The notes below the pieces were generated by a model. It did not search any database. It was not told the DNA's origin and saw only the letters and a list, made by a program, of their open reading frames with translations. A DNA stretch of 64,000 nt, from positions 66,579 to 130,578 of the forward strand of contig JAXHNJ010000001.1 in NCBI GenBank assembly GCA_034520665.1, given 5' to 3'. Source of the stretch: Patescibacteria group bacterium. Lineage in GTDB: Bacteria; Patescibacteriota; Patescibacteriia; JAXHNJ01. Both the position numbers and the translations under genes were made by a program. Positions 1,875 to 51,819 of this stretch are shown here, piece after piece (the first letter of the stretch is position 1; each line of letters begins with the position of its first letter).

Positions 1875-1902
1875 TTTACAAACTAATAAATTTTGATATA
1901 CT
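1875..1902 (+). promoter_or_regulatory. sigma70-like promoter candidate upstream of the tRNA locus
   Basis: TTTACA-N16-TATACT about 20 nt upstream of the structured RNA locus. Confidence 0.35.
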
Positions 1903-1923: not shown

Positions 1924-2288
1924 CGGGGTATGGCGCAGTTGTCCCGAAGTTATCGAAATCTTTGATTTCGTCATAACTTCGAGAATCCTCGTCCTACCAC
2001 AAAGTGGCAAGGACGGGAGCTAGCGCGTACGCATAAGGTGCCTGCCCGCCTTGACTGCCGGGGATTAGCTCAGTTGGCTAGAGCGCGCGCATGGGGTGCG
2101 TGAGGTCGCCCGTTCAAGTCGGGTATCCCCGATAGTCAAGGCTGTCGGGCGGGCGTGAGGTCGCCTGTTCAAGCTTGCCCCGTACCTGACGACTCTGAGC
2201 GAAGTCGAAGAGAAGTCATGGTTCGGGGTCTGGCCTGCCCGCTGAAGCCCGCAGTAAAACAAAGGGCGAAAGCGGGCTACCCCGACCA
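1924..2288 (+). ncRNA. GC-rich composite structured RNA with tRNA-like termini (5' CGGGGTA pairs with 3' TACCCCG, then A, then encoded CCA). It encloses a tRNA-Pro. Class unresolved.
   Basis: Sharply GC-rich block in AT-rich DNA. The ends form a perfect 7-bp acceptor-like helix plus A-CCA. A GCGC/AGTTG...GCTA/GCGC D-arm is interrupted by about 77 nt of hairpins. A degenerate copy of a tRNA 3' half lies at 2153-2182. Multiple GCCCGC/GCGGGC complementary boxes. Confidence 0.35.
2059..2132 (+). tRNA. tRNA-Pro (anticodon GGG)
   Basis: Hand-folded cloverleaf: acceptor CGGGGAT/ATCCCCG with C1-G72 and A73 (bacterial Pro identity). D-arm GCTC-AGTTGGCTA-GAGC. Anticodon stem CGCGC/GCGTG with loop ATGGGGT. 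T-arm GCCCG-TTCAAGT-CGGGT. No encoded CCA. Confidence 0.85.
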
Positions 2289-2410
2289 CAGTTTATCTGA
2301 CTAACGTGCGCTTGTCCCGATTTCTCTATACGACAAAAGTGTTTGGATGGTAATTGATGTTGTTGTTATTGGGTTTTTAATAGGATTAATAATTAAATTT
2401 AGAAAATAAT

Positions 2411-3475
2411 ATGTTTTGTGAACAATGTGGAAAACAAATATCTGAAGCGGGAAAATATTGTCGCTATTGTGGCCATAAAACACAAGAATTAAAACAAGAA
2501 GTTAGTGTTGATAAACAAAAAGATGAAATATCAAAACAAAAACAAAAGATTGATAATATTAAATATGCGGGATTTTGGATTAGATTTTTTGCGTACCTAA
2601 TTGATGGCTTTGTTATTTTGGTATTATTGGCTGTTTTGTACTTAATATTACCGAAAATTTTTGATGATTATACTCTTTTTATAATCCTTTATATATTTTT
2701 AATTTGGGCGTATTTTATTTATTTTGAAGGCAAAAGTGGTTCAACAATAGGAAAAAAGTTACTAGGGATTAAAGTGCTCTCTAAGGATTTAAAACCGATT
2801 AATTATAATATTGCGTTCATACGAACATTAGGGAAAATTCCATCAAGTATATTATTTTTAGGTTATATTGCCATTGCCTTAAACAAAAACAAATTGGGTT
2901 GGCACGATAAAATTGCCAAGACAGTAGTTATTTATGAAAGAAAAAAGGCAAAGAGTAAAAAATTTGAGGATAAAAAAGTAAAGAATAAGAAAAATACAAA
3001 AAAATCTACTAGCACTATTATTGCCACAAGAATTCTTTATAGTGTACTTATCTTACTTTTATTATTTTTATCAATCCTTGGAGCAATAGGAGCATTTACA
3101 GAGAAAGGGAACGGTAATCAAAATTCAAATAAAACATCAATTACAAATAGAGTGATTAATCCTATGCCCGACCATTTAATAATAATGGATCCCCTTTTTA
3201 AAATAGATAGCTCTGGGGAATATCAGTGCAAAAGGTTCGGTGAAATTGGCTTTATGCCTGAGGATTATTTAGCAGAAAAAGAAATTGAAATTAGAGGATA
3301 TTTTGCGGGGACGTCATTAAGCGTTAATGATATAGATATAGAGTTAAAAGGTACAAAATTTGACACAAATATAGAGTTTGATTTTAAGTCAGGGAAAAAT
3401 AGATTGATATTTAAAGGTATATACCCAACAGGGAGAGAAGAAATAAGAGAATGTTATATGGAATATAGACCCTAA
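2411..3475 (+). CDS. zinc-ribbon plus RDD-family membrane protein
   Basis: N-terminal CxxC...CxxC (MFCEQCGKQISEAGKYCRYCGHK), then hydrophobic RDD-like segment (FWIRFFAYLIDGFVILVLL) and a C-terminal soluble domain. Confidence 0.6.
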   Translation: MFCEQCGKQISEAGKYCRYCGHKTQELKQEVSVDKQKDEISKQKQKIDNIKYAGFWIRFFAYLIDGFVILVLLAVLYLILPKIFDDYTLFIILYIFLIWAYFIYFEGKSGSTIGKKLLGIKVLSKDLKPINYNIAFIRTLGKIPSSILFLGYIAIALNKNKLGWHDKIAKTVVIYERKKAKSKKFEDKKVKNKKNTKKSTSTIIATRILYSVLILLLLFLSILGAIGAFTEKGNGNQNSNKTSITNRVINPMPDHLIIMDPLFKIDSSGEYQCKRFGEIGFMPEDYLAEKEIEIRGYFAGTSLSVNDIDIELKGTKFDTNIEFDFKSGKNRLIFKGIYPTGREEIRECYMEYRP

Positions 3476-3667
3476 ATTGTAAAAATACTTATACTTGCGT
3501 TAAAATTTAATCTATAACAAAGAAAAGAGAAAAATCCTAAGAAAAATATTGCCCGAAATGTATGAAGAATAAGACAGTTAGGATTGACAAATGTACTGTA
3601 AAAAATGTGGCGCTAAACTTATGCTGGTAGATTAGTCAAATGGCATAAGAATTTAATTTTAAAAAGT

Positions 3668-4222
3668 ATGAAGATATTAGAATCAATAAAGCAGGATGAA
3701 GTTTGGGAGCATTGGTTTAAAATAGAAAAGCCTAAAGAATATAAAAAAATCATTGATAATGGTGATAACACTGAATTAAAGAAAGAGATTAGATGTTGGC
3801 GTTGCGATATTAAGTCTTTACTCCCCACAAATATTAAATGGTCTAAAGCTAAATTAGAAAATAATGATATAGAAAAAATTTTTATCATTTCTTCAAGCGA
3901 CTGGAGATTAGATAAGCTATGTATACCAGACTATAAATTAACATCAGCTATTATAAATTACAGAAAAAAGTTCTCCACAGCAGGTAAGTTTAAAAATATC
4001 CATGAAAAAGAAAATCTTTTTTTGTCTAGCCCTAATGTACTTGACACAAAGTTAATTTTTATTTCGGAAAAAATAAGCGGACTATTTACTATAATAGAGG
4101 GCAACAAAAGAGCTGTTGCGTTAGGTAAACTTGATAAAATGAAAGGTTTAGAAATTTTTTTAGGGATTTCACCGGAAATAAAAGATTCTACTTGGGCGAG
4201 GTATTCATATAATATTAAGTGA
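3668..4222 (+). CDS. hypothetical protein with ParB/Srx-like nuclease-fold motif
   Basis: 184-aa ORF. C-terminal IIEGNKRAVALGKL resembles the ParB-type GxxRxxA motif. Weak call. Confidence 0.4.
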   Translation: MKILESIKQDEVWEHWFKIEKPKEYKKIIDNGDNTELKKEIRCWRCDIKSLLPTNIKWSKAKLENNDIEKIFIISSSDWRLDKLCIPDYKLTSAIINYRKKFSTAGKFKNIHEKENLFLSSPNVLDTKLIFISEKISGLFTIIEGNKRAVALGKLDKMKGLEIFLGISPEIKDSTWARYSYNIK

Positions 4223-4380
4223 TTATAATTAACATAATGAATGAGTTTAATAGAAAAGAAGTAAGTAAATTATTGTTCGATTGTCATCGGAGGCGCTGTA
4301 TTTGTCATTAGTTTTGTGGGATCAAGATGGAAACAGACCATATTGATTAGCATGCAGAACCACAAAATAATTCTATTGAG

Positions 4381-4771
4381 ATGCAATTCTGGTTTATTTT
4401 GAGTGCCATGCCGAAATACATCTTTACAATAATAAACACCAAAGGGAAGAAAATTTTTACCTGAAGAATTAAAACAGCATAAAAAACAGTGGTTCAATAC
4501 ATACAAAAACTATCCTGAAATTTTTATTATTCCCATGCAGCATAGTGACATTGGACCATTACAAGCACTGCTCGATGAGCTAATGTTTAATAATAAAAAA
4601 AACAACTCAAATGAAATTGGATGTCCATTTGAGACAAAACAATTTGATCGCGTTTTGTCAGAAGGATACCTTTCAATATTACATGACGATTTATTCGATT
4701 CATTAATGGAGATATATCGGAAGGGCAGTCGCTCGAATGTCAGCGAAAATTCTCTTCAAAATAGGTTCTAA
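4381..4771 (+). pseudogene. frameshifted / decayed gene of unknown function
   Basis: 27-codon ORF (MQFWFILSAMPKYIFTIINTKGKKIFT*) and the downstream 78-codon ORF overlap in different frames, with the similar peptide strings NTKGKKIF and TPKGRKFL across an A-run. Several more short broken frames lie upstream (4270-4380). Confidence 0.4.
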
Positions 4772-4862
4772 CCTCGTTCAATAATTGCGACCAAATTATT
4801 TATTAATAAAAAAACACTCTCATAATATTTTCGGAGCGTTTTTTAAATTTATTAAATAATAT

Positions 4863-5039
4863 TTACTTTTTCTCTTTGGCCTGATCTCTAATACAAGCAG
4901 CACAGGCTTTATATTTTTTGCCGTTTTTGATTAAAGTTTGCAAATTTATCTTTTGTAATCTTTTGGTGGCTATGTTAGAATGACTGCGCGAAATAGCTGT
5001 CTTAGCCGTCTTGCCGCAGATTTCACATTTTCTGGCCAT
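4863..5039 (-). CDS. rpmB: 50S ribosomal protein L28
   Basis: 58-aa ORF MARKCEICGKTAKTAISRSHSNIATKRLQKINLQTLIKNGKKYKACAACIRDQAKEKK. Below the ORF-track length cutoff. Confidence 0.85.
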   Translation of the reverse strand: MARKCEICGKTAKTAISRSHSNIATKRLQKINLQTLIKNGKKYKACAACIRDQAKEKK

Positions 5040-39327: not shown

Positions 39328-39370
39328 TTAATTCATAAAAACCTAAAAAGCCTATATTACTGATAACATC

Positions 39371-39445
39371 GGGCTTAAGGGAAGTTTTTTCTCGCAGAGA
39401 AAAAACTTGGGAGAGCGAAGTGCAACGAGCGAACCCTTTAAGCCC
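39371..39445 (+). repeat. GC-rich structured intergenic element with nested inverted repeats
   Basis: GGGCTTAAGGG...CCCTTTAAGCCC outer inverted repeat enclosing a perfect 12-bp hairpin AAGTTTTTTCTC-GCA-GAGAAAAAACTT. Imperfect GTGCAACG..CGAAC direct repeats follow. Confidence 0.45.
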
Positions 39446-39558
39446 TGTTAATTGTCCCGAGCGTAGCGAGAGTGCAACGTGGTCGAACGAAGTGAGAAGT
39501 AATCAGAAGCCCCGTTCTATTCACAAGTTATTTAAAATAGAAAGGATCCTATTTAATT

Positions 39559-40140: not shown

Positions 40141-41427
40141 ATGGCTTATGTTTCCGAAATTAGTCAATTTATAGACAAGAAAGTGCTTTTAAAGGGATGG
40201 ATATTTAATATCCGCTCCTCTGGAAGCATCTTTTTTTTACAGTTTCGGGACGGTACTGGTGTTATTCAGGCTATAGTGGCCAAAAATGATGTTTCTGATA
40301 AAGTTTTTGAAAGCTGCCAAAAATTAACTATTGAAAGCTCAGTAGAAATAAAGGGTAAGGTGGTTAAACAGCCTAAAGCCCCGACAGGATATGAACTGCA
40401 GGTCAGTGATTTAAAAGTAATTCAAGTGGCCCCGCGTTATCCGATTGGCAAAAAGTCCCACGGTACCGAATTTTTGATGAATCACCGGCATCTTTGGCTG
40501 CGTTCCAGTCGTCAGCGGGCTATTTTAAGGCTACGCGACGCGATTATCTGGGCCGCTCGTAAATTTTTTAAAGAAGAAGGTTTTATCCTCACTGATTCTC
40601 CTATTTTAACTCCGACGGCTTGTGAAGGCACCACTACGCTTTTTGAAACTGATTATTTTGACCAACCGGCTTATCTTTCGCAGTCCGGTCAGCTCTATAT
40701 TGAAGCCACAGCCGCTGCTTTGGGTCGGGTTTATGATTTTGGACCAACTTTCCGGGCGGAAAAATCAAAAACTAGAAAACACTTGATGGAATTTTGGATG
40801 TTGGACGCCGAAGCGGCTTTTGTTGAACATAAAGAAAATTTAGAAATTCAGGAAAATATGGTGGCCTATATCGTAAAATATGTTTTGGAAAATAATAAAA
40901 AAGATTTAAAAAACCTAAAGCGTGACACCAAAAAACTGGAAAAAATTAAAGCTCCTTTTATCCGTAAAAAATATGAAGAGATAATCAACGAATTAAATAA
41001 AAAAAGCTTTAAAATTAAATTTGGTGATGACTTTGGGGCCGAAGAAGAAACGGCTATTTCTGAAGATGTTGATAAACCAGTCTTTGTCACTCACTGGCCT
41101 AAAGAAACCAAACCTTTTTATATGAAGCAAGATCCGAAAAATAAAAAGCTGGTTTTAAATTCAGATCTGATTGCTCCTGAAAGCTATGGTGAAATAATCG
41201 GCGGCTCACAAAGAGAGGATGACTATGAGATTTTAAAAGCCAATATGGAAAAAGCCGGTATTCCCATCAAAGACTATCAGTGGTACCTTGATTTGAGAAA
41301 ATATGGCACTTTTCCACATTCCGGTTTTGGCATTGGTATTGAAAGGACTGTGGCTTGGATCTGCGGACTAGATCATATTCGCGAAACTATTCCCTTCCCA
41401 AGAATGCTTAATCGATTAAGACCATAA
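40141..41427 (+). CDS. asnS: asparaginyl-tRNA synthetase (class IIb; archaeal-type AspRS not excluded)
   Basis: 428 aa, GPTFRAEKSKTRKHLMEFWMLDAE motif 2 and C-terminal GFGIGIERTV motif 3. Confidence 0.75.
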   Translation: MAYVSEISQFIDKKVLLKGWIFNIRSSGSIFFLQFRDGTGVIQAIVAKNDVSDKVFESCQKLTIESSVEIKGKVVKQPKAPTGYELQVSDLKVIQVAPRYPIGKKSHGTEFLMNHRHLWLRSSRQRAILRLRDAIIWAARKFFKEEGFILTDSPILTPTACEGTTTLFETDYFDQPAYLSQSGQLYIEATAAALGRVYDFGPTFRAEKSKTRKHLMEFWMLDAEAAFVEHKENLEIQENMVAYIVKYVLENNKKDLKNLKRDTKKLEKIKAPFIRKKYEEIINELNKKSFKIKFGDDFGAEEETAISEDVDKPVFVTHWPKETKPFYMKQDPKNKKLVLNSDLIAPESYGEIIGGSQREDDYEILKANMEKAGIPIKDYQWYLDLRKYGTFPHSGFGIGIERTVAWICGLDHIRETIPFPRMLNRLRP

Positions 41428-41545: not shown

Positions 41546-41610
41546 TCAACTATTCAACCAGTTAACTTAATCAACTAATTAACTTATTCCATGAACAAAA
41601 AAGGCTTAAC
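41546..41610 (+). repeat. leader module copy A (AT-rich TAACTAATTAACTTATTCC plus ATGAACAAAAAAGGCTTAAC) at serpin start
   Basis: Near-identical to 42980-43040 and 43915-43950. Confidence 0.6.
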
Positions 41611-42892
41611 TCAAATATTATCTCTTGGTTTAATTTTAGCTCTTATTATTATTGGCTTTTCTTCAGCTTATGTTTATTTGAAACCAAAAAAAGAAACAAA
41701 TAGTAATACTACTAGCAGTAAAATAAATTTGAATTCCTCTCAAGCAAATATAAATACAAATTCAAGTTCTATGATACCAGTTGATAGCCTAAGTCAGGCC
41801 CACACTATTTTTGGTTTAAATATTTTAGATAAATTATATCAATCAGCAAAAAAGGATAATATCTTTATTTCTCCGACTAGTATTGCTTTAGCTCTTTCCA
41901 TGGTTTATCAGGGTAGCGACAGTCAGACCAAAGCCGAAATAGCCGAGACTTTGGCCATTTCCGATATTTCTATGGAGGATTTAAATAAACAAACTAAAAA
42001 TTTGATTACTCAATATAAAGATATTGATCCGGATGTTGAAGTGGCTATAGCTAATTCCATTTGGACTAGGTCTGGTTTTAAACCAAAACAGGATTTTATA
42101 AATACTTTACAAACTTGGTATGAAGCTACTGCTAAAGCTTTGGATTTTAACCAAAAAGAATCTGTTGACGAAATAAATAACTGGGTTAAAGAAAATACTA
42201 AAGATAAAATTGAGAGTATAGTAAACGACCCCATTTCTTCTGACGTGATTATGTATCTGATTAACGCCACTTATTTTAAAGGTATCTGGACCAAGGAGTT
42301 TAAACCTGAAAACACCCAAGAACGCCCTTTTTATAACGGTGATAACACTGAAGAACAACATGATTTCATGTACCAGCGTGAAGATTATGCCTATTTAGAG
42401 AACAATGATTTCCAAGCGGTAAAGTTACCTTACGGTGAAAATGAACGGCTTAGTATGTATGTCTTTTTACCAAAGGATGATCTTGAGTCATTTATGGCAG
42501 AATTAAATTCTGAAAATTGGCATGATTGGCTAAAAGATTTTTCCACTAAAGAAGGATATTTGTATCTGCCAAAAATAAAGCTTGAATATGAAAAAAGTCT
42601 TAATTCATATTTAAAAGACTTGGGTATGAAGCAGGCTTTTACTGCTAGCGCTGATTTTAATAAAATAGCGGCGGATGTATATATTAGTGATGTTTTGCAT
42701 AAGACTTTTGTTGAGGTTAATGAAGAGGGCACTGAAGCAGCGGCTGTTACTAGTGTTAAAATCATTACAACCGCTGAAGAACCCCAGGAATCTTTTAATA
42801 TGTTAGTTAATAAACCCTACTTCTTTGCCATTAGAGATAATGAAATAGGTGAGAATCTTTTTATGGGTATTATTAATAATCCGGAATATTAA
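41591..42892 (+). CDS. serpin (serine protease inhibitor family), membrane-anchored/secreted, with Asn/Ser-rich linker
   Basis: 433 aa. NATYFKGIWTKEF. Hinge and reactive-centre loop EEGTEAAAVTSVKII. C-terminal NKPYFFAIRDNEIGENLFMGIINNP. Confidence 0.85.
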   Translation: MNKKGLTQILSLGLILALIIIGFSSAYVYLKPKKETNSNTTSSKINLNSSQANINTNSSSMIPVDSLSQAHTIFGLNILDKLYQSAKKDNIFISPTSIALALSMVYQGSDSQTKAEIAETLAISDISMEDLNKQTKNLITQYKDIDPDVEVAIANSIWTRSGFKPKQDFINTLQTWYEATAKALDFNQKESVDEINNWVKENTKDKIESIVNDPISSDVIMYLINATYFKGIWTKEFKPENTQERPFYNGDNTEEQHDFMYQREDYAYLENNDFQAVKLPYGENERLSMYVFLPKDDLESFMAELNSENWHDWLKDFSTKEGYLYLPKIKLEYEKSLNSYLKDLGMKQAFTASADFNKIAADVYISDVLHKTFVEVNEEGTEAAAVTSVKIITTAEEPQESFNMLVNKPYFFAIRDNEIGENLFMGIINNPEY

Positions 42893-43993: not shown

Positions 43994-45385
43994 ATGCAAC
44001 GAATTTTTACGAACGAAACATTAGACCAAATTGATAAAAAAGTTAAACTAGCTGGCTTTGTCAATAATGTCCGCAAAATGGGCTCGATTGTTTTTATTGA
44101 CTTGCGCGACAAAGAGGGGATTATCCAGGTCGTTTTAGACAAAGGCTTTAAAGAAGCTAAAGATTTAAAACCGGAATATGTGATTGAATTAGAGGGTAAA
44201 GTAGCTAAAAGAAGCGAAAAAAATATTAATCCGGAAATACCGACCGGTGAGGTGGAAATTCAGGCTACCAGCTTAAAAATCTTATCAGAAAGCAAAACTC
44301 CGCCTTTTGAGATTGAAAATGAAGAGCGGCAGGCTAACGAAGAATTAAGGCTAAAATACCGTTATTTGGATCTGCGTCATGAGCGTATGAAAAATAATAT
44401 TATTTTACGGGATAAAGTGATTTGGTTTATTCGCCAGTGGCTGCATAATAAAAATTTTTATGAAATTGAAACCCCTCTTTTAACCAAAGGGACCCCTGAA
44501 GGAGCTCGAGAATACATTGTGCCTTCCAGGAATTTTCCGGGCCAGTTTTATGTTTTACCGCAATCACCGCAGCAGTTTAAACAACTTTTAATGATCAGCG
44601 GTTTTGAAAGGTATTTTCAAGTAGCCCGGTGTTTTCGCGATGAAGACGCTCGAGGCGACCGCCAGGCTGAGTTCACCCAGCTGGATTTGGAGATGGCTTT
44701 TACTAGCGACAAAAAGATAATGGAGCTGACGGAAAACTTAATGACTGAATTGGTCAAGAGTGTTTGCCCGAAAAAGAAAATCGCTAAAAAGCCTTTCCCC
44801 ATACTTACTTATGAAGAAGCTATGAAAAAACACCAAAGTGATAAGCCTGATTTGCGGGAGAATAAAAAAGACAAAGATAACTTGGCTTTTTGCTGGGTAG
44901 TCAATCCGCCGCTTTTTGAGCGCGCAGAAAAAGAAAAAAAATTAGTTTCCACTCATCACCCTTTTACGGCACCGGTAGAAAAAGATTTAAAAAATTTAGA
45001 TAAAAATCCGGAAAAAGTAAAGGCCCTCTCTTACGACCTGGTTTTAAACGGCTATGAAATCGGTACCGGCAGTATCAGAATTCACCAAAAAGATTTGCAG
45101 CAAAAAATATTTGAAATTTTAGGGCTTAGTCAAAAAGAAATAAAAAAACGCTTTGGCCATATTTTGGAAGCCTTTGAATATGGGGTGCCACCTCATGGAG
45201 GTATGGCTCCGGGTCTAGACCGCCTGGTCATGCTTTTGGCGGGTGAGCCGAATATCCGCGAAGTAATGGCTTTCCCCAAAACTTCAGATGCCCGTGATCT
45301 GATGATGGGAGCTCCTTCTAAATTGCCGGAGTCGGAAGTTAAAGAAAAGCATATTTCTATTGATAAAAAACATGAGAATATCTAA
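43994..45385 (+). CDS. aspS: aspartyl-tRNA synthetase, bacterial type lacking the GAD insertion domain
   Basis: 463 aa. ARCFRDEDARGDRQAEFTQLD motif 2. GGMAPGLDRLVMLL motif 3. Confidence 0.85.
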   Translation: MQRIFTNETLDQIDKKVKLAGFVNNVRKMGSIVFIDLRDKEGIIQVVLDKGFKEAKDLKPEYVIELEGKVAKRSEKNINPEIPTGEVEIQATSLKILSESKTPPFEIENEERQANEELRLKYRYLDLRHERMKNNIILRDKVIWFIRQWLHNKNFYEIETPLLTKGTPEGAREYIVPSRNFPGQFYVLPQSPQQFKQLLMISGFERYFQVARCFRDEDARGDRQAEFTQLDLEMAFTSDKKIMELTENLMTELVKSVCPKKKIAKKPFPILTYEEAMKKHQSDKPDLRENKKDKDNLAFCWVVNPPLFERAEKEKKLVSTHHPFTAPVEKDLKNLDKNPEKVKALSYDLVLNGYEIGTGSIRIHQKDLQQKIFEILGLSQKEIKKRFGHILEAFEYGVPPHGGMAPGLDRLVMLLAGEPNIREVMAFPKTSDARDLMMGAPSKLPESEVKEKHISIDKKHENI

Positions 45386-46261: not shown

Positions 46262-46846
46262 ATGTCAATTCCAGTTAAAGTTAAAAACTATTTAAAAAAA
46301 ACCGGACTTAATTATAAACTTTTAGAACACAAAAAAGTTTTTACGGCTTATGATTTAGCCCAGACTACCCGCAATGAGCTAAAAAATATTGCTAAAACTT
46401 TATTTATAAAAGCCGATTCTGATTATTATCTGGTAGTTTTAGGAGCCAATCGTCGTCTAGATAAAACTAAATTAAAAAAAGTCTTAAAAGCCAAGAAAGT
46501 AAAAATGGCTTCGGAAAAACAGATGGCTAAGAAATTAAAAATTAAACCTGGCGCTATTACTCCATTTGGCGGTCTTTATGATATTACTCTTATTTTAGAC
46601 CGTCCCTTAAGCCAAATAAAAAAGGCTCTTTTTGGGGCTGGCAGTTTTACAGAGAGTCTGCTTATTAAAATGAAAGATTTTATAAAAAAAGAGGAGCCGG
46701 TTATCGGTACTATTGGCCAGTCAGCTAAATTAAAAGTTCAATACAAAAAGAAGCCAAAGAAAAAGAAGAAAAGAAAAAAGAAGAAGAAGAGATCTAAGAA
46801 AAAAAAGAAGACTTCAAAAAAGACGAAGAGAAAGAAGAAAAAATAA
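46262..46846 (+). CDS. ybaK: YbaK/ProX-type aminoacyl-tRNA deacylase domain protein with poly-lysine C-terminal tail
   Basis: Core PGAITPFGG...GAGS. The last 45 residues are nearly all K/R. Confidence 0.55.
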   Translation: MSIPVKVKNYLKKTGLNYKLLEHKKVFTAYDLAQTTRNELKNIAKTLFIKADSDYYLVVLGANRRLDKTKLKKVLKAKKVKMASEKQMAKKLKIKPGAITPFGGLYDITLILDRPLSQIKKALFGAGSFTESLLIKMKDFIKKEEPVIGTIGQSAKLKVQYKKKPKKKKKRKKKKKRSKKKKKTSKKTKRKKKK

Positions 46847-51744: not shown

Positions 51745-51819
51745 GCCGCTTTCGTCTAGCTTGGTTTAGGACGCATCCCTCTCACGGATGAAACACGGGT
51801 TCAAATCCCGTAGGCGGTA
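51745..51819 (+). tRNA. tRNA-Glu (anticodon CTC)
   Basis: Hand-folded. Acceptor GCCGCTT/AGGCGGT (two GU pairs, including 1-72). D-arm GTCT-AGCTTGGTTTA-GGAC. Anticodon stem CATCC/GGATG with loop CTCTCAC. T-arm ACGGG-TTCAAAT-CCCGT. No CCA. Confidence 0.65.

Follow-up and report, generated by a model that had tools for sequence, protein, structure and literature searches.

How does a complete transfer RNA gene come to lie inside what looks like a second tRNA gene of the same kind? The question is raised by a stretch of 64,000 nucleotides (nt) from a Patescibacteria group bacterium (contig JAXHNJ010000001.1 of assembly GCA_034520665.1, positions 66,579 to 130,578; referred to here as the window), in which an initial annotation, made from the sequence alone, had described a tRNA-Pro(GGG) nested within a larger RNA with tRNA-like ends. 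The composite locus and all of the elements listed for it were found where they had been placed, by reading of the sequence and, for the inner tRNA, by ARAGORN. The explanation that we favor, and consider reasonably probable, is a nested or 'Russian-doll' arrangement in which the outer frame represents the remains of a former resident tRNA-Pro(GGG) gene, now broken, and the inner tRNA-Pro(GGG) is the working one. According to this explanation, a resident gene that already bore a hairpin expansion in its D-loop would have been split in the 3' strand of its anticodon stem, past G39-C40, by a 112-bp cassette consisting of a fresh tRNA-Pro(GGG) and two complementary arms. Selection would then have shifted to the inner copy, leaving the outer halves to drift.

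The inner gene reads as an elongator tRNA throughout, with stems of 7, 4, 5 and 5 bp and with U8, A14, G18G19, U33 and GTTCAAG all in place, and it has every identity element of bacterial tRNA-Pro (C1-G72, A73, G35 and G36). A near-identical copy at a related locus, L032, scores 58.2 bits with Rfam model RF00005 and differs from the window tRNA by compensatory changes in the anticodon stem. Because the tRNA-Glu at 51745-51819 of the window, like the inner tRNA, has no encoded CCA, this end must be added enzymatically.

Around the inner gene, the outer frame consists of four collinear, non-overlapping segments, A to D (1924-1941, 2019-2040, 2153-2174 and 2273-2288; 18+22+22+16 nt), which when joined give a 74-nt cloverleaf plus CCA with every stem paired (7/7, 4/4, 5/5 and 5/5). 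The frame is interrupted by 77 nt in the D-loop, by 112 nt past G39-C40, which hold the inner tRNA, and by 98 nt past the T-loop. As read from the sequence, its acceptor stem pairs CGGGGTA (1924-1930) with TACCCCG (2278-2284), followed by A2285 and by CCA at 2286-2288, and its D-stem pairs GCGC (1933-1936) with GCGC (2023-2026), the D-loop being interrupted between AGTTG and GCTA. In the anticodon stem, TACGC (2028-2032) pairs with GCGTG (2153-2157), and in the T-stem GCCTG (2163-2167) can pair with CGGGC (2273-2277) around the 98-nt insertion at 2175-2272. The D-loop insertion (1942-2018) with its two hairpins is as the initial annotation had it, and so are the copy of a tRNA 3' half at 2153-2174, which matches inner tRNA positions 2097-2118 at 20 of 22 nt, and the GCCCGC/GCGGGC boxes. 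The proline-type identity that it had given to the outer frame holds for C1-G72 and A73 and fails at the anticodon: the loop, ATAAGGT, presents AAG (A34 A35 G36), which is no proline anticodon, and the outer gene therefore no longer decodes proline. The whole block folds at -182.7 kcal/mol (z = -7.7), with none of 100 shuffled sequences folding equally well. In this minimum free energy (MFE) fold the halves of the old gene pair together, segment A with 2278-2284 and 2023-2026, and the cassette arms form a clamp.

The cassette is 112 nt long (2042-2152 plus the repeated GC), of which 74 nt are tRNA. Its left arm pairs with 2133-2150 in the MFE fold and, when compared with the reverse complement of the right arm, agrees in 14 of 17 positions, the comparison requiring two gaps, of 4 nt and 1 nt. 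The 9-bp inverted repeat that had been noted around the inner tRNA is indeed present as the clamp helix, formed by CCTTGACTG (2049-2057) and TAGTCAAGG (2133-2141) with 8 Watson-Crick pairs and one G.U pair, which extends the inner acceptor stem after one unpaired nucleotide and measures 6-9 bp across cassettes. There are four distinct nested tRNAs without an encoded CCA (the innermost one shared by the window and L032, the tRNA-Pro(GGG) of L031, shell L2 of L032 and the inner tRNA of L021), and each is bracketed by a leader-trailer helix in a fixed register whose sequence varies by cassette. When these helices were aligned, 98.4% of the cells were paired, 10 of 16 pairs were changed on both sides, none of 500 shuffles did as well, and controls in which the alignment was slid were 30-45% paired; with four sequences and flanks cut by hand, this alignment is indicative and no proof. 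The strong covariation means that the fold of the composite RNA matters, and it suggests that proper folding or processing is under selection. The nested tRNA-Pro(CGG) of L031 has retained its CCA and has no clamp helix.

The related loci were reached by three routes. A first pattern run against a genome collection, a D-arm with a 62-92-nt gap, gave only one useful locus, L017, in a metagenome-assembled genome of Komeilibacteria; its other matches, mostly tandem tRNA arrays of Bacteroidales and Saccharibacteria, were false positives. A pattern built from the window and L017 led to L020 in a metagenome collection, and orthologous loci of the closest relatives were reached through the neighboring gene rpmB, whose product L28 is 81-86% identical. 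At four of the loci, L023-L026, a single tRNA-Pro(GGG) with CCA begins 19 nt past the rpmB stop codon, and its only oddity is a D-loop insertion, 88 nt of structured sequence between G18 and G19 (the gene lies at 938-1101 in L024 and is identical in L023, 420-583, L025, 448-611, and L026, 938-1101). The L024 gene has an intact ATGGGGT loop and T-arm and no shell. ARAGORN reports no tRNA in L023-L026, and Rfam none in L024. The 77-nt insertion of the window is homologous to this 88-nt insertion: hairpin 1 is near-identical with one compensatory A-U to G-C change, and the distal part of hairpin 2 has been replaced. Other D-loop insertions occupy the identical site in L020, L021, L031 and L032. 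Segment A has homologues in the 5' end of the single L024 tRNA-Pro(GGG) and in the outer shells of L021, L031, L020 and L017.

The same 112-nt cassette as in the window, with arms CCCGCCCGCCTTGACTGC and TAGTCAAGGCAGTCGGGCGG around a tRNA-Pro(GGG), is found in L032, located between ..TATGCATGGGGTGC and GCGTGAGGTCG.. of a shell homologous to the outer frame of the window. The shell flanks are ..ATGGGGTGC on the left and GCGTGAGGTC... on the right, and the shell runs on identically to segment C through GCGTGAGGTCG. In this shell, hairpins take the place of the D-loop and T-loop. GCCGAGAGT and CTCTCGGC flank it on either side, and further shell pieces enclose it, giving L032 at least three shells, while the count in the related bacteria reaches three or four at this one place; the 5' units follow in series, a spacer, GCCGAGAGT and a 5' piece occurring twice. 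The outer 5' part of L021 contains a 30-nt D-loop insert and an anticodon-loop hairpin (ATGG[..]TAAAGGTG). It is followed by an inner tRNA-Pro(GGG) clamped by UUCGGG/CCCGAG, by GCGTG, by a 3' domain that has CTTGCCCCGTA and the CCTGTCCGCC..GAAGGCG module in common with the window, and by TACCCCG-A-CCA; an outer T-arm is absent. The same TACCCCG-A-CCA end closes the outer shell of L031, where a complete tRNA-Pro(CGG) and a complete tRNA-Pro(GGG) lie between pieces of one frame with a CCA end. L017 and L020 have the 5' part only, followed by a hairpin, TAAAGGTGC, an AT-rich spacer, a tRNA with CCA and a terminator. Like the window, L021, L031 and L032 have element CTTGCCCCGTA and the module CCTG(C/T)CCGC..GAA(A/G)GCG in their outer 3' parts. 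Because the same domain directly follows GCGTG in L021, the 98-nt domain of the window may be a deletion-fusion of two shells and not a true T-loop insertion, in which case the neat outer T-stem may be partly fortuitous.

What ties these loci together is a common breakpoint, with the split after G39-C40 in seven junction sets. Left parts end in ..GGTGC in the window, in L032 (at two levels), L031, L017 and L020, and in ..GGTG in L021, while right parts begin with GC(G/A)TG in the window, L032 (two levels), L031 and L021. Wherever both sides are present (window, L031 and two levels of L032), GC stands on both. The junctions thus have a shared core and the same target in independent events, as integrative scars do, with a repeat length of 1-9 nt. 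Shell damage is confined to loci with a nested replacement tRNA, the un-nested L024 gene being pristine. The outer anticodon is AAG in the window as against GGG in the L032 shell and in L024, shell L2 of L032 has hairpins in place of its D-arm and T-loop, the acceptor of shell L1 reads CGAGGTA, and hairpins occupy the anticodon loops in L017, L020, L021 and L031. When aligned with segment B, the loop of shell L2 reads ATGGGGT, which implies two G-to-A changes in the window. Loss of an anticodon-loop hairpin (AT[GG-hairpin-TA]AAGGTGC) was considered as another origin of AAG and is less likely than the two substitutions, because the orthologous L032 shell has ATGGGGTGC with the same cassette.

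 The best promoter match of the region, a sigma-70-type site at 1875-1902 (10 of 12 positions plus TG), follows the terminator of the upstream gene (1728-1756), and its block TTATTTACAAAC.A.TAAATTTTGATATACTAA is kept upstream of the L021 composite, all of which strongly implies that a single conserved promoter precedes the entire composite block. The GC-rich arm of the cassette has no promoter-like site of its own, and the inner tRNA must therefore come from the long transcript. We envisage that this promoter would transcribe the block as one RNA, from which RNase P and a 3' endonuclease would free the inner tRNA for CCA addition, the outer halves (135 and 156 nt) being structured leader and trailer by-products. 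The features of the locus are collected in Table 1.

Table 1. Positions of the features of the composite locus in the window and of the recombinase genes in three other loci (feature, position, strand, remarks).
Sigma-70-type promoter	1875..1902	+	TTTACA, 16 nt, TG-extended TATACT
Outer segment A	1924..1941	+	acceptor 5' CGGGGTA, T8 G9, D-stem 5' GCGC, D-loop AGTTG
D-loop insertion, 77 nt	1942..2018	+	closing helix TCCCG/CGGGA and two hairpins
Outer segment B	2019..2041	+	GCTA, D-stem 3' GCGC, G26, TACGC, loop ATAAGGT, G39 C40
Cassette left arm CTGCCCGCCTTGACTGC	2042..2058	+	5' clamp-helix strand; near-identical in L032
Inner tRNA-Pro(GGG)	2059..2132	+	ARAGORN; C1-G72, A73, without encoded CCA
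Cassette right arm TAGTCAAGGCTGTCGGGCGG	2133..2152	+	3' clamp-helix strand
Outer segment C	2153..2174	+	repeated GC, GCGTG, variable loop AGGTC, T-stem GCCTG, T-loop TTCAAGC
GC-rich 3' domain, 98 nt	2175..2272	+	apparent T-loop insertion; has CTTGCCCCGTA and CCTGCCCGC...GCGGGC module
Outer segment D	2273..2288	+	CGGGC (T-stem 3'-like), acceptor 3' TACCCCG, A73, CCA
Recombinase genes	L017 1595-3418; L035 1-1805; L036 8357-10260		inverted-repeat flanks

Taken over all loci, the nested arrangement would reflect recurrent insertion of cassettes at one tRNA-Pro(GGG) site, after which the repeated pieces underwent unequal recombination or deletion; L021, L031, L017 and L020 would represent other stages. 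Gene conversion, together with unequal recombination, probably also shapes the loci, as the serial 5' units of L032 and the identical halves of L021 suggest. A bolder version, which we put forward tentatively as possible, makes the cassette a selfish or 'replace-as-you-break' element of 110-150 bp that inserts site-specifically after G39-C40 of resident tRNA-Pro(GGG) genes, each round leaving behind a paired shell, and for which the clamp is required for processing. If this were true, a corollary would be that the bacterial tRNA of the L024 type works with, or removes, its 88-nt D-loop expansion. A miniature inverted-repeat element would have terminal inverted repeats, a target duplication of fixed length and many copies per genome; the arms of the cassette are inverted repeats and a 2-bp GC repeat flanks it, and the 64-kb window has a single copy. 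Unlike transposase-bound ends, its arms vary in sequence among cassettes while their pairing stays.

A candidate for the inserting enzyme is encoded at L017, where the gene for a large serine recombinase (Resolvase, Recombinase and Zn_ribbon_recom domains) lies after the tRNA-Pro(GGG) in convergent orientation. Its family numbers 6652 proteins at E <= 1e-20, and the best 120 of these 6652 relatives are 66-90% identical to the L017 protein and come under source names from several phyla. Two further members that were looked up, L035 and L036, also abut a tRNA-Pro gene. The inverted repeats around the gene are 150 bp long and 99% identical in L017; because the outer ends of the repeats start with CGACCA, the last six bases of the abutting tRNA-Pro, the units are placed at the tRNA 3' end. 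The recombinase reading frame continues through the complement of the tRNA. A displaced 5' fragment of tRNA-Pro lies just upstream in L017 and L035, and in L035 the tRNA-Pro next to the recombinase is preceded by the 10-mer CCTGCCCGCC, which it shares with the cassette arm of the window (2041-2050, C2041 belonging to the shell); displaced 3' fragments were not found within the available DNA of L035, L036 and L017. These links are circumstantial and make the serine recombinase a candidate only. The joined-arm form of the cassette, GTCGGGCGG-GC-CTGCCCGCC, is palindromic with a GC core, and to read the arms as attP/attB sites of such an enzyme is a possibility, weakened by the position of the recombinase units at the 3' ends of tRNAs and by the RNA-like covariation of the arms. 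No viral or phage source was found for the cassette or the recombinase. A 15-mer scan for the cassette returned 120 chance matches, none of them in a tRNA context.

Several observations weigh against insertion of a mobile cassette into a gene that then decayed. The window contains a single cassette, and no free or viral copy of it was found. A tblastn search of the window with the L017-family protein found no recombinase, nor did Pfam scans of 35 of the 61 window proteins, a set that leaves the open reading frames (ORFs) at about 10.9-26.5 kb outside, report any recombinase or transposase. The recombinase units of the other loci sit at the 3' end of tRNA-Pro and not at position 39/40. The junction repeats vary from 1 to 9 nt (GC; GGTGC in L031; GGCTAGCRC at the L031 D-arm), and there is therefore no uniform target duplication. 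The covariation of the arms fits selection at the RNA level better than it fits recombinase binding sites. Because the outer and inner halves of L021 are identical, gene conversion or internal duplication, and not foreign insertion, may lie behind some of the shells. Finally, all stems of the window's outer frame are intact and its GC-rich hairpins persist at 34% GC, which could mean that the shell is still functional.

This last point leads to a reading that we think rather unlikely, in which the outer frame is a functional, non-decoding structured RNA, a tRNA-derived scaffold that has expansion hairpins and ends in CCA, acting for instance as processing platform, decoy or landing pad, from which the inner tRNA is processed. 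It would account for the very stable folds (z = -7.7 in the window, -6.7 for the L021 composite), for GC-rich hairpins kept in an AT-rich genome, and for compensatory changes in the D-loop hairpin, the clamp and the anticodon-loop hairpin (CCCGCC/GGCGGG versus CCCCGC/GCGGGG). Outer acceptor pairing and an ACCA end are retained in the window, L021 and L031, 3' modules are common to several loci, and L017 and L020 resemble each other more closely in the 5' part with its hairpin and TAAAGGTGC than in their tRNAs. Yet each orthologous locus has an architecture of its own (the outer T-arm is missing from L021, the outer 3' half from L017 and L020, and any shell from L024), which speaks against one functional RNA family. 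The D-loop inserts have unrelated sequences, acceptor pairs are broken in the older L032 shells, no Rfam family matches, and gene conversion from the inner copy, as in L021, can preserve an intact look without selection. A novel tRNA-like structured RNA, one of the two alternatives in the initial annotation, is thus possible but less likely, and the outer termini that it had singled out, although kept in L021 and L031, are broken in the older shells of L032, and L024 has no shell at all. A distinctly improbable alternative dispenses with insertion altogether and derives the nesting from a tandem tRNA-Pro array through deletions, unequal crossing-over or gene conversion. Patescibacteria commonly have tRNA-Pro genes in tandem (L003 and L014), the serial 5' units of L032 resemble a tandem duplication, the halves of L021 are identical, and a deletion fusing two shells explains the 98-nt 'T-loop insertion' well. 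What such an array would not be expected to yield is complementary arms around each nested tRNA; moreover, two cassette types, one with GC-rich arms and the other with an AT-rich spacer and GCYSAGAGT arms, occur at exactly one breakpoint, and the outer segments are collinear and do not overlap.

The other alternative of the initial annotation was a second tRNA-Pro interrupted by introns, with a functional tRNA-Pro as passenger. The interrupted, tRNA-Pro-derived gene and its functional passenger stand, but we regard it as very improbable that the outer frame is a working tRNA whose four exons are ligated after removal of three introns. It is true that the collinear exons rebuild a perfect cloverleaf plus CCA, that every insertion has a closing helix and a position within a loop or on the edge of a stem, and that the L024 D-loop insertion must be removed or tolerated if that gene is functional. 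The spliced product, however, would carry AAG on a proline-type body with a short variable loop, and further disruption of the outer anticodon loop is seen in L021 and L031, where an outer 3' half exists, as well as in the L017 and L020 5' fragments. Splicing of the archaeal type would require a bulge-helix-bulge at every boundary of exon and intron, with a 4-bp helix between two 3-nt bulges. Judged by reading of the sequence and the fold, this motif is absent at the junctions, which form symmetric internal loops. At the D-loop junction, the D-stem leads into a 5x4-nt internal loop and on to helix TCCCG/CGGGA; the anticodon junction has an 11x2-nt internal loop, beyond which come a helix of 5 bp, a bulge of 4 nt and a second helix of 9 bp. 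No splicing endonuclease or ligase was seen among the 35 proteins scanned with Pfam in these 64 kb of the genome, and bacteria are not known to have a splicing endonuclease. A group I intron, for which a P3-P8 catalytic core of at least about 200 nt and a match to an Rfam intron model were the criteria, can be set aside; inserts of 77, 112 and 98 nt are too small, and even at E <= 10 neither group I nor group II models match. The known group I introns of Patescibacteria tRNAs lie at position 35/36 of tRNA-Asn and tRNA-Asp (PMC13011429). The shells of relatives also speak against introns in a working outer tRNA: in L032, L021, L017 and L020 they are visibly degenerate or have no 3' half.

The remaining RNA families were examined with the same tools. 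Rfam matched no family on the block, whether at the gathering threshold or at E <= 10, and ARAGORN reported only the tRNA-Pro(GGG) and no transfer-messenger RNA (tmRNA). In agreement with the initial annotation, the block is thus not tmRNA, RNase P RNA, SRP RNA or a group I intron according to ARAGORN and Rfam; for tmRNA, the outer frame also has C1 and G3-C70 and not G1 and G3-U70. The silence of Rfam cmscan extends to the canonical tRNA-Pro(GGG) of the window (2059-2132), of L001 (an independent assembly of the locus) and of L031 (1283-1357), even when an 89-nt slice is searched at E <= 10, while the copies in L032, L021, L020 and L017 are reported. This is probably an effect of a composition filter, because the three unreported copies have the run GAGCGCGCGCATG in common. 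A hidden competing Rfam match that masks the inner tRNA was dropped as an explanation, since the near-identical L031 tRNA is also unreported.

The window is 34% GC and carries housekeeping genes (YjeF_N, an RDD protein, rpmB, rpsL, rpsG and fusA) and a series of ORFs sized like a ribosomal-protein operon, and the block at 1924-2288 (+) is its sole large GC-rich non-coding block. The protein database lists the RDD protein under a Patescibacteria group bacterium, and its nearest relative there is from Candidatus Kerfeldbacteria. Because the independent assembly L001 (Logan SRR26473340) is 100% identical across the locus, the latter is not an assembly artefact. When window 1924-5039 is compared with L021 867-2003 and L024 756-1101, the tRNA-Pro locus is inverted relative to rpmB, and three additional genes (for the RDD protein and for 184-aa and 78-aa proteins) lie between the two in the window. 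Elsewhere in the window, two paralogues of class II synthetases of the AspRS/AsnRS/LysRS type (40141-41427 and 43994-45385) have a serpin gene (41591-42892) between them, a free-standing aminoacyl-tRNA editing-domain protein (Pfam tRNA_edit) is encoded at 46262-46846, and 213 nt at 39328-39540 have no long ORF and a GC content of 41%, which exceeds the intergenic norm.

Among the related loci, a few further arrangements were seen. At 984-1200 of L031, the tRNA-Pro(CGG) with CCA lies between two outer-frame pieces that both have the 9-nt repeat GGCTAGC(G/A)C at the D-arm, which makes the D-arm a second nesting site, different from position 39/40. A more distant relative, L027 (6190-6370; the same in L028-L030), has a 71-nt tRNA-Pro(GGG) after rpmB whose leader and trailer are GC-rich and can pair as AGGAGC/GCUCCU. 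A second GC-rich non-coding block (..CTCTCCCGCCTGCCTTAGCC..GGCGACGGGCCGG..GAGCATGGCCGAAGGGCTGTTAG), conserved in two metagenomes, lies between rpmB and the tRNA-Pro composite at 1100-1290 of L021, where it was read on the minus strand, and at 1225-1302 of L022; no gene is called in it, and Rfam reports nothing there in L021. Upstream of a Kerfeldbacteria RDD ortholog, reached by RDD synteny, L019 (7630-7925) has a tRNA-Ser(GCT) with a repeated 3' end: the repeat (AATCCCTCTCTCCG, with CCA) lies about 190 nt beyond the tRNA-Ser, after GGATTCGAAC and a GC-rich stretch of about 125 nt that folds like its shuffles (z = -0.6). This repeat may be a comparable scar in another tRNA.

For annotation, the immediate consequence is that standard tools find one tRNA at the window locus and none in genes of the L024 type. 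Patescibacteria tRNA complements, and hence completeness estimates, are affected, as has been argued earlier for group I introns (PMC13011429). The loci also document that one tRNA gene was disrupted and replaced time and again, at a specific position, in genomes regarded as streamlined, and this recurrence points to recombination activity or to a mobile cassette aimed at the tRNA anticodon stem. The working tRNA must be excised from a precursor of 365 nt in which the leader and the trailer are themselves homologues of that tRNA, and the L024-type gene raises the question of whether bacterial tRNAs can carry or remove D-loop inserts. That attack by mobile elements shapes fragmented tRNA genes is a long-standing idea, and the present locus may, by analogy, be regarded as a bacterial counterpart to it. 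The clamp helix, the recurrent insertion site and the D-loop expansion of the L024 type are the features worth experiments.

Full-text searches turned up no account of a complete tRNA that lies within the anticodon stem of its paralogue, of shells that repeat, or of a bacterial tRNA-Pro that is D-loop-expanded and otherwise intact; their absence from the library searched is no proof of novelty. In bacterial rrn operons, a leader-trailer helix brackets the mature rRNA within a long precursor. The composite is alike in that such a helix brackets a mature RNA in one precursor; unlike the rrn stems, its predicted helix is 6-9 bp long and abuts the tRNA acceptor with one unpaired nucleotide. The group I introns of Patescibacteria tRNAs, detected by intron models (PMC13011429), come from the same phylum and likewise hide tRNA genes from standard annotation, whereas the inserts described here are 77-112 nt long and match no intron model. 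The disrupted tRNAs of archaea, which include multi-intron, split and tri-split genes (PMC4033280, PMC3218864), also have interruptions at non-canonical positions (here D-loop, anticodon stem and T-loop) and GC-rich complementary sequences that join the pieces. On the other hand, the present locus is bacterial, has no bulge-helix-bulge, a mutated outer anticodon and degenerate orthologous shells, and one of its 'introns' is a complete tRNA of the same isoacceptor; since bulge-helix-bulge and a usable anticodon are absent, the resemblance is architectural only. The closest phenomenon is the partial tRNA genes left as attL/attR by integrative elements, mobile-element integration being a documented source of partial tRNA genes (PMC9897764). 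There, too, a tRNA gene is the target, a complete gene is kept and old fragments remain beside it, and a recombinase abuts tRNA-Pro in L017, L035 and L036. Here, however, the 'element' is about 112 bp, carries a whole tRNA and lies within the anticodon stem with fragments on both sides that still pair; no integrase was found nearby, nesting is repeated at one site, and the flanking arms covary as an RNA helix.

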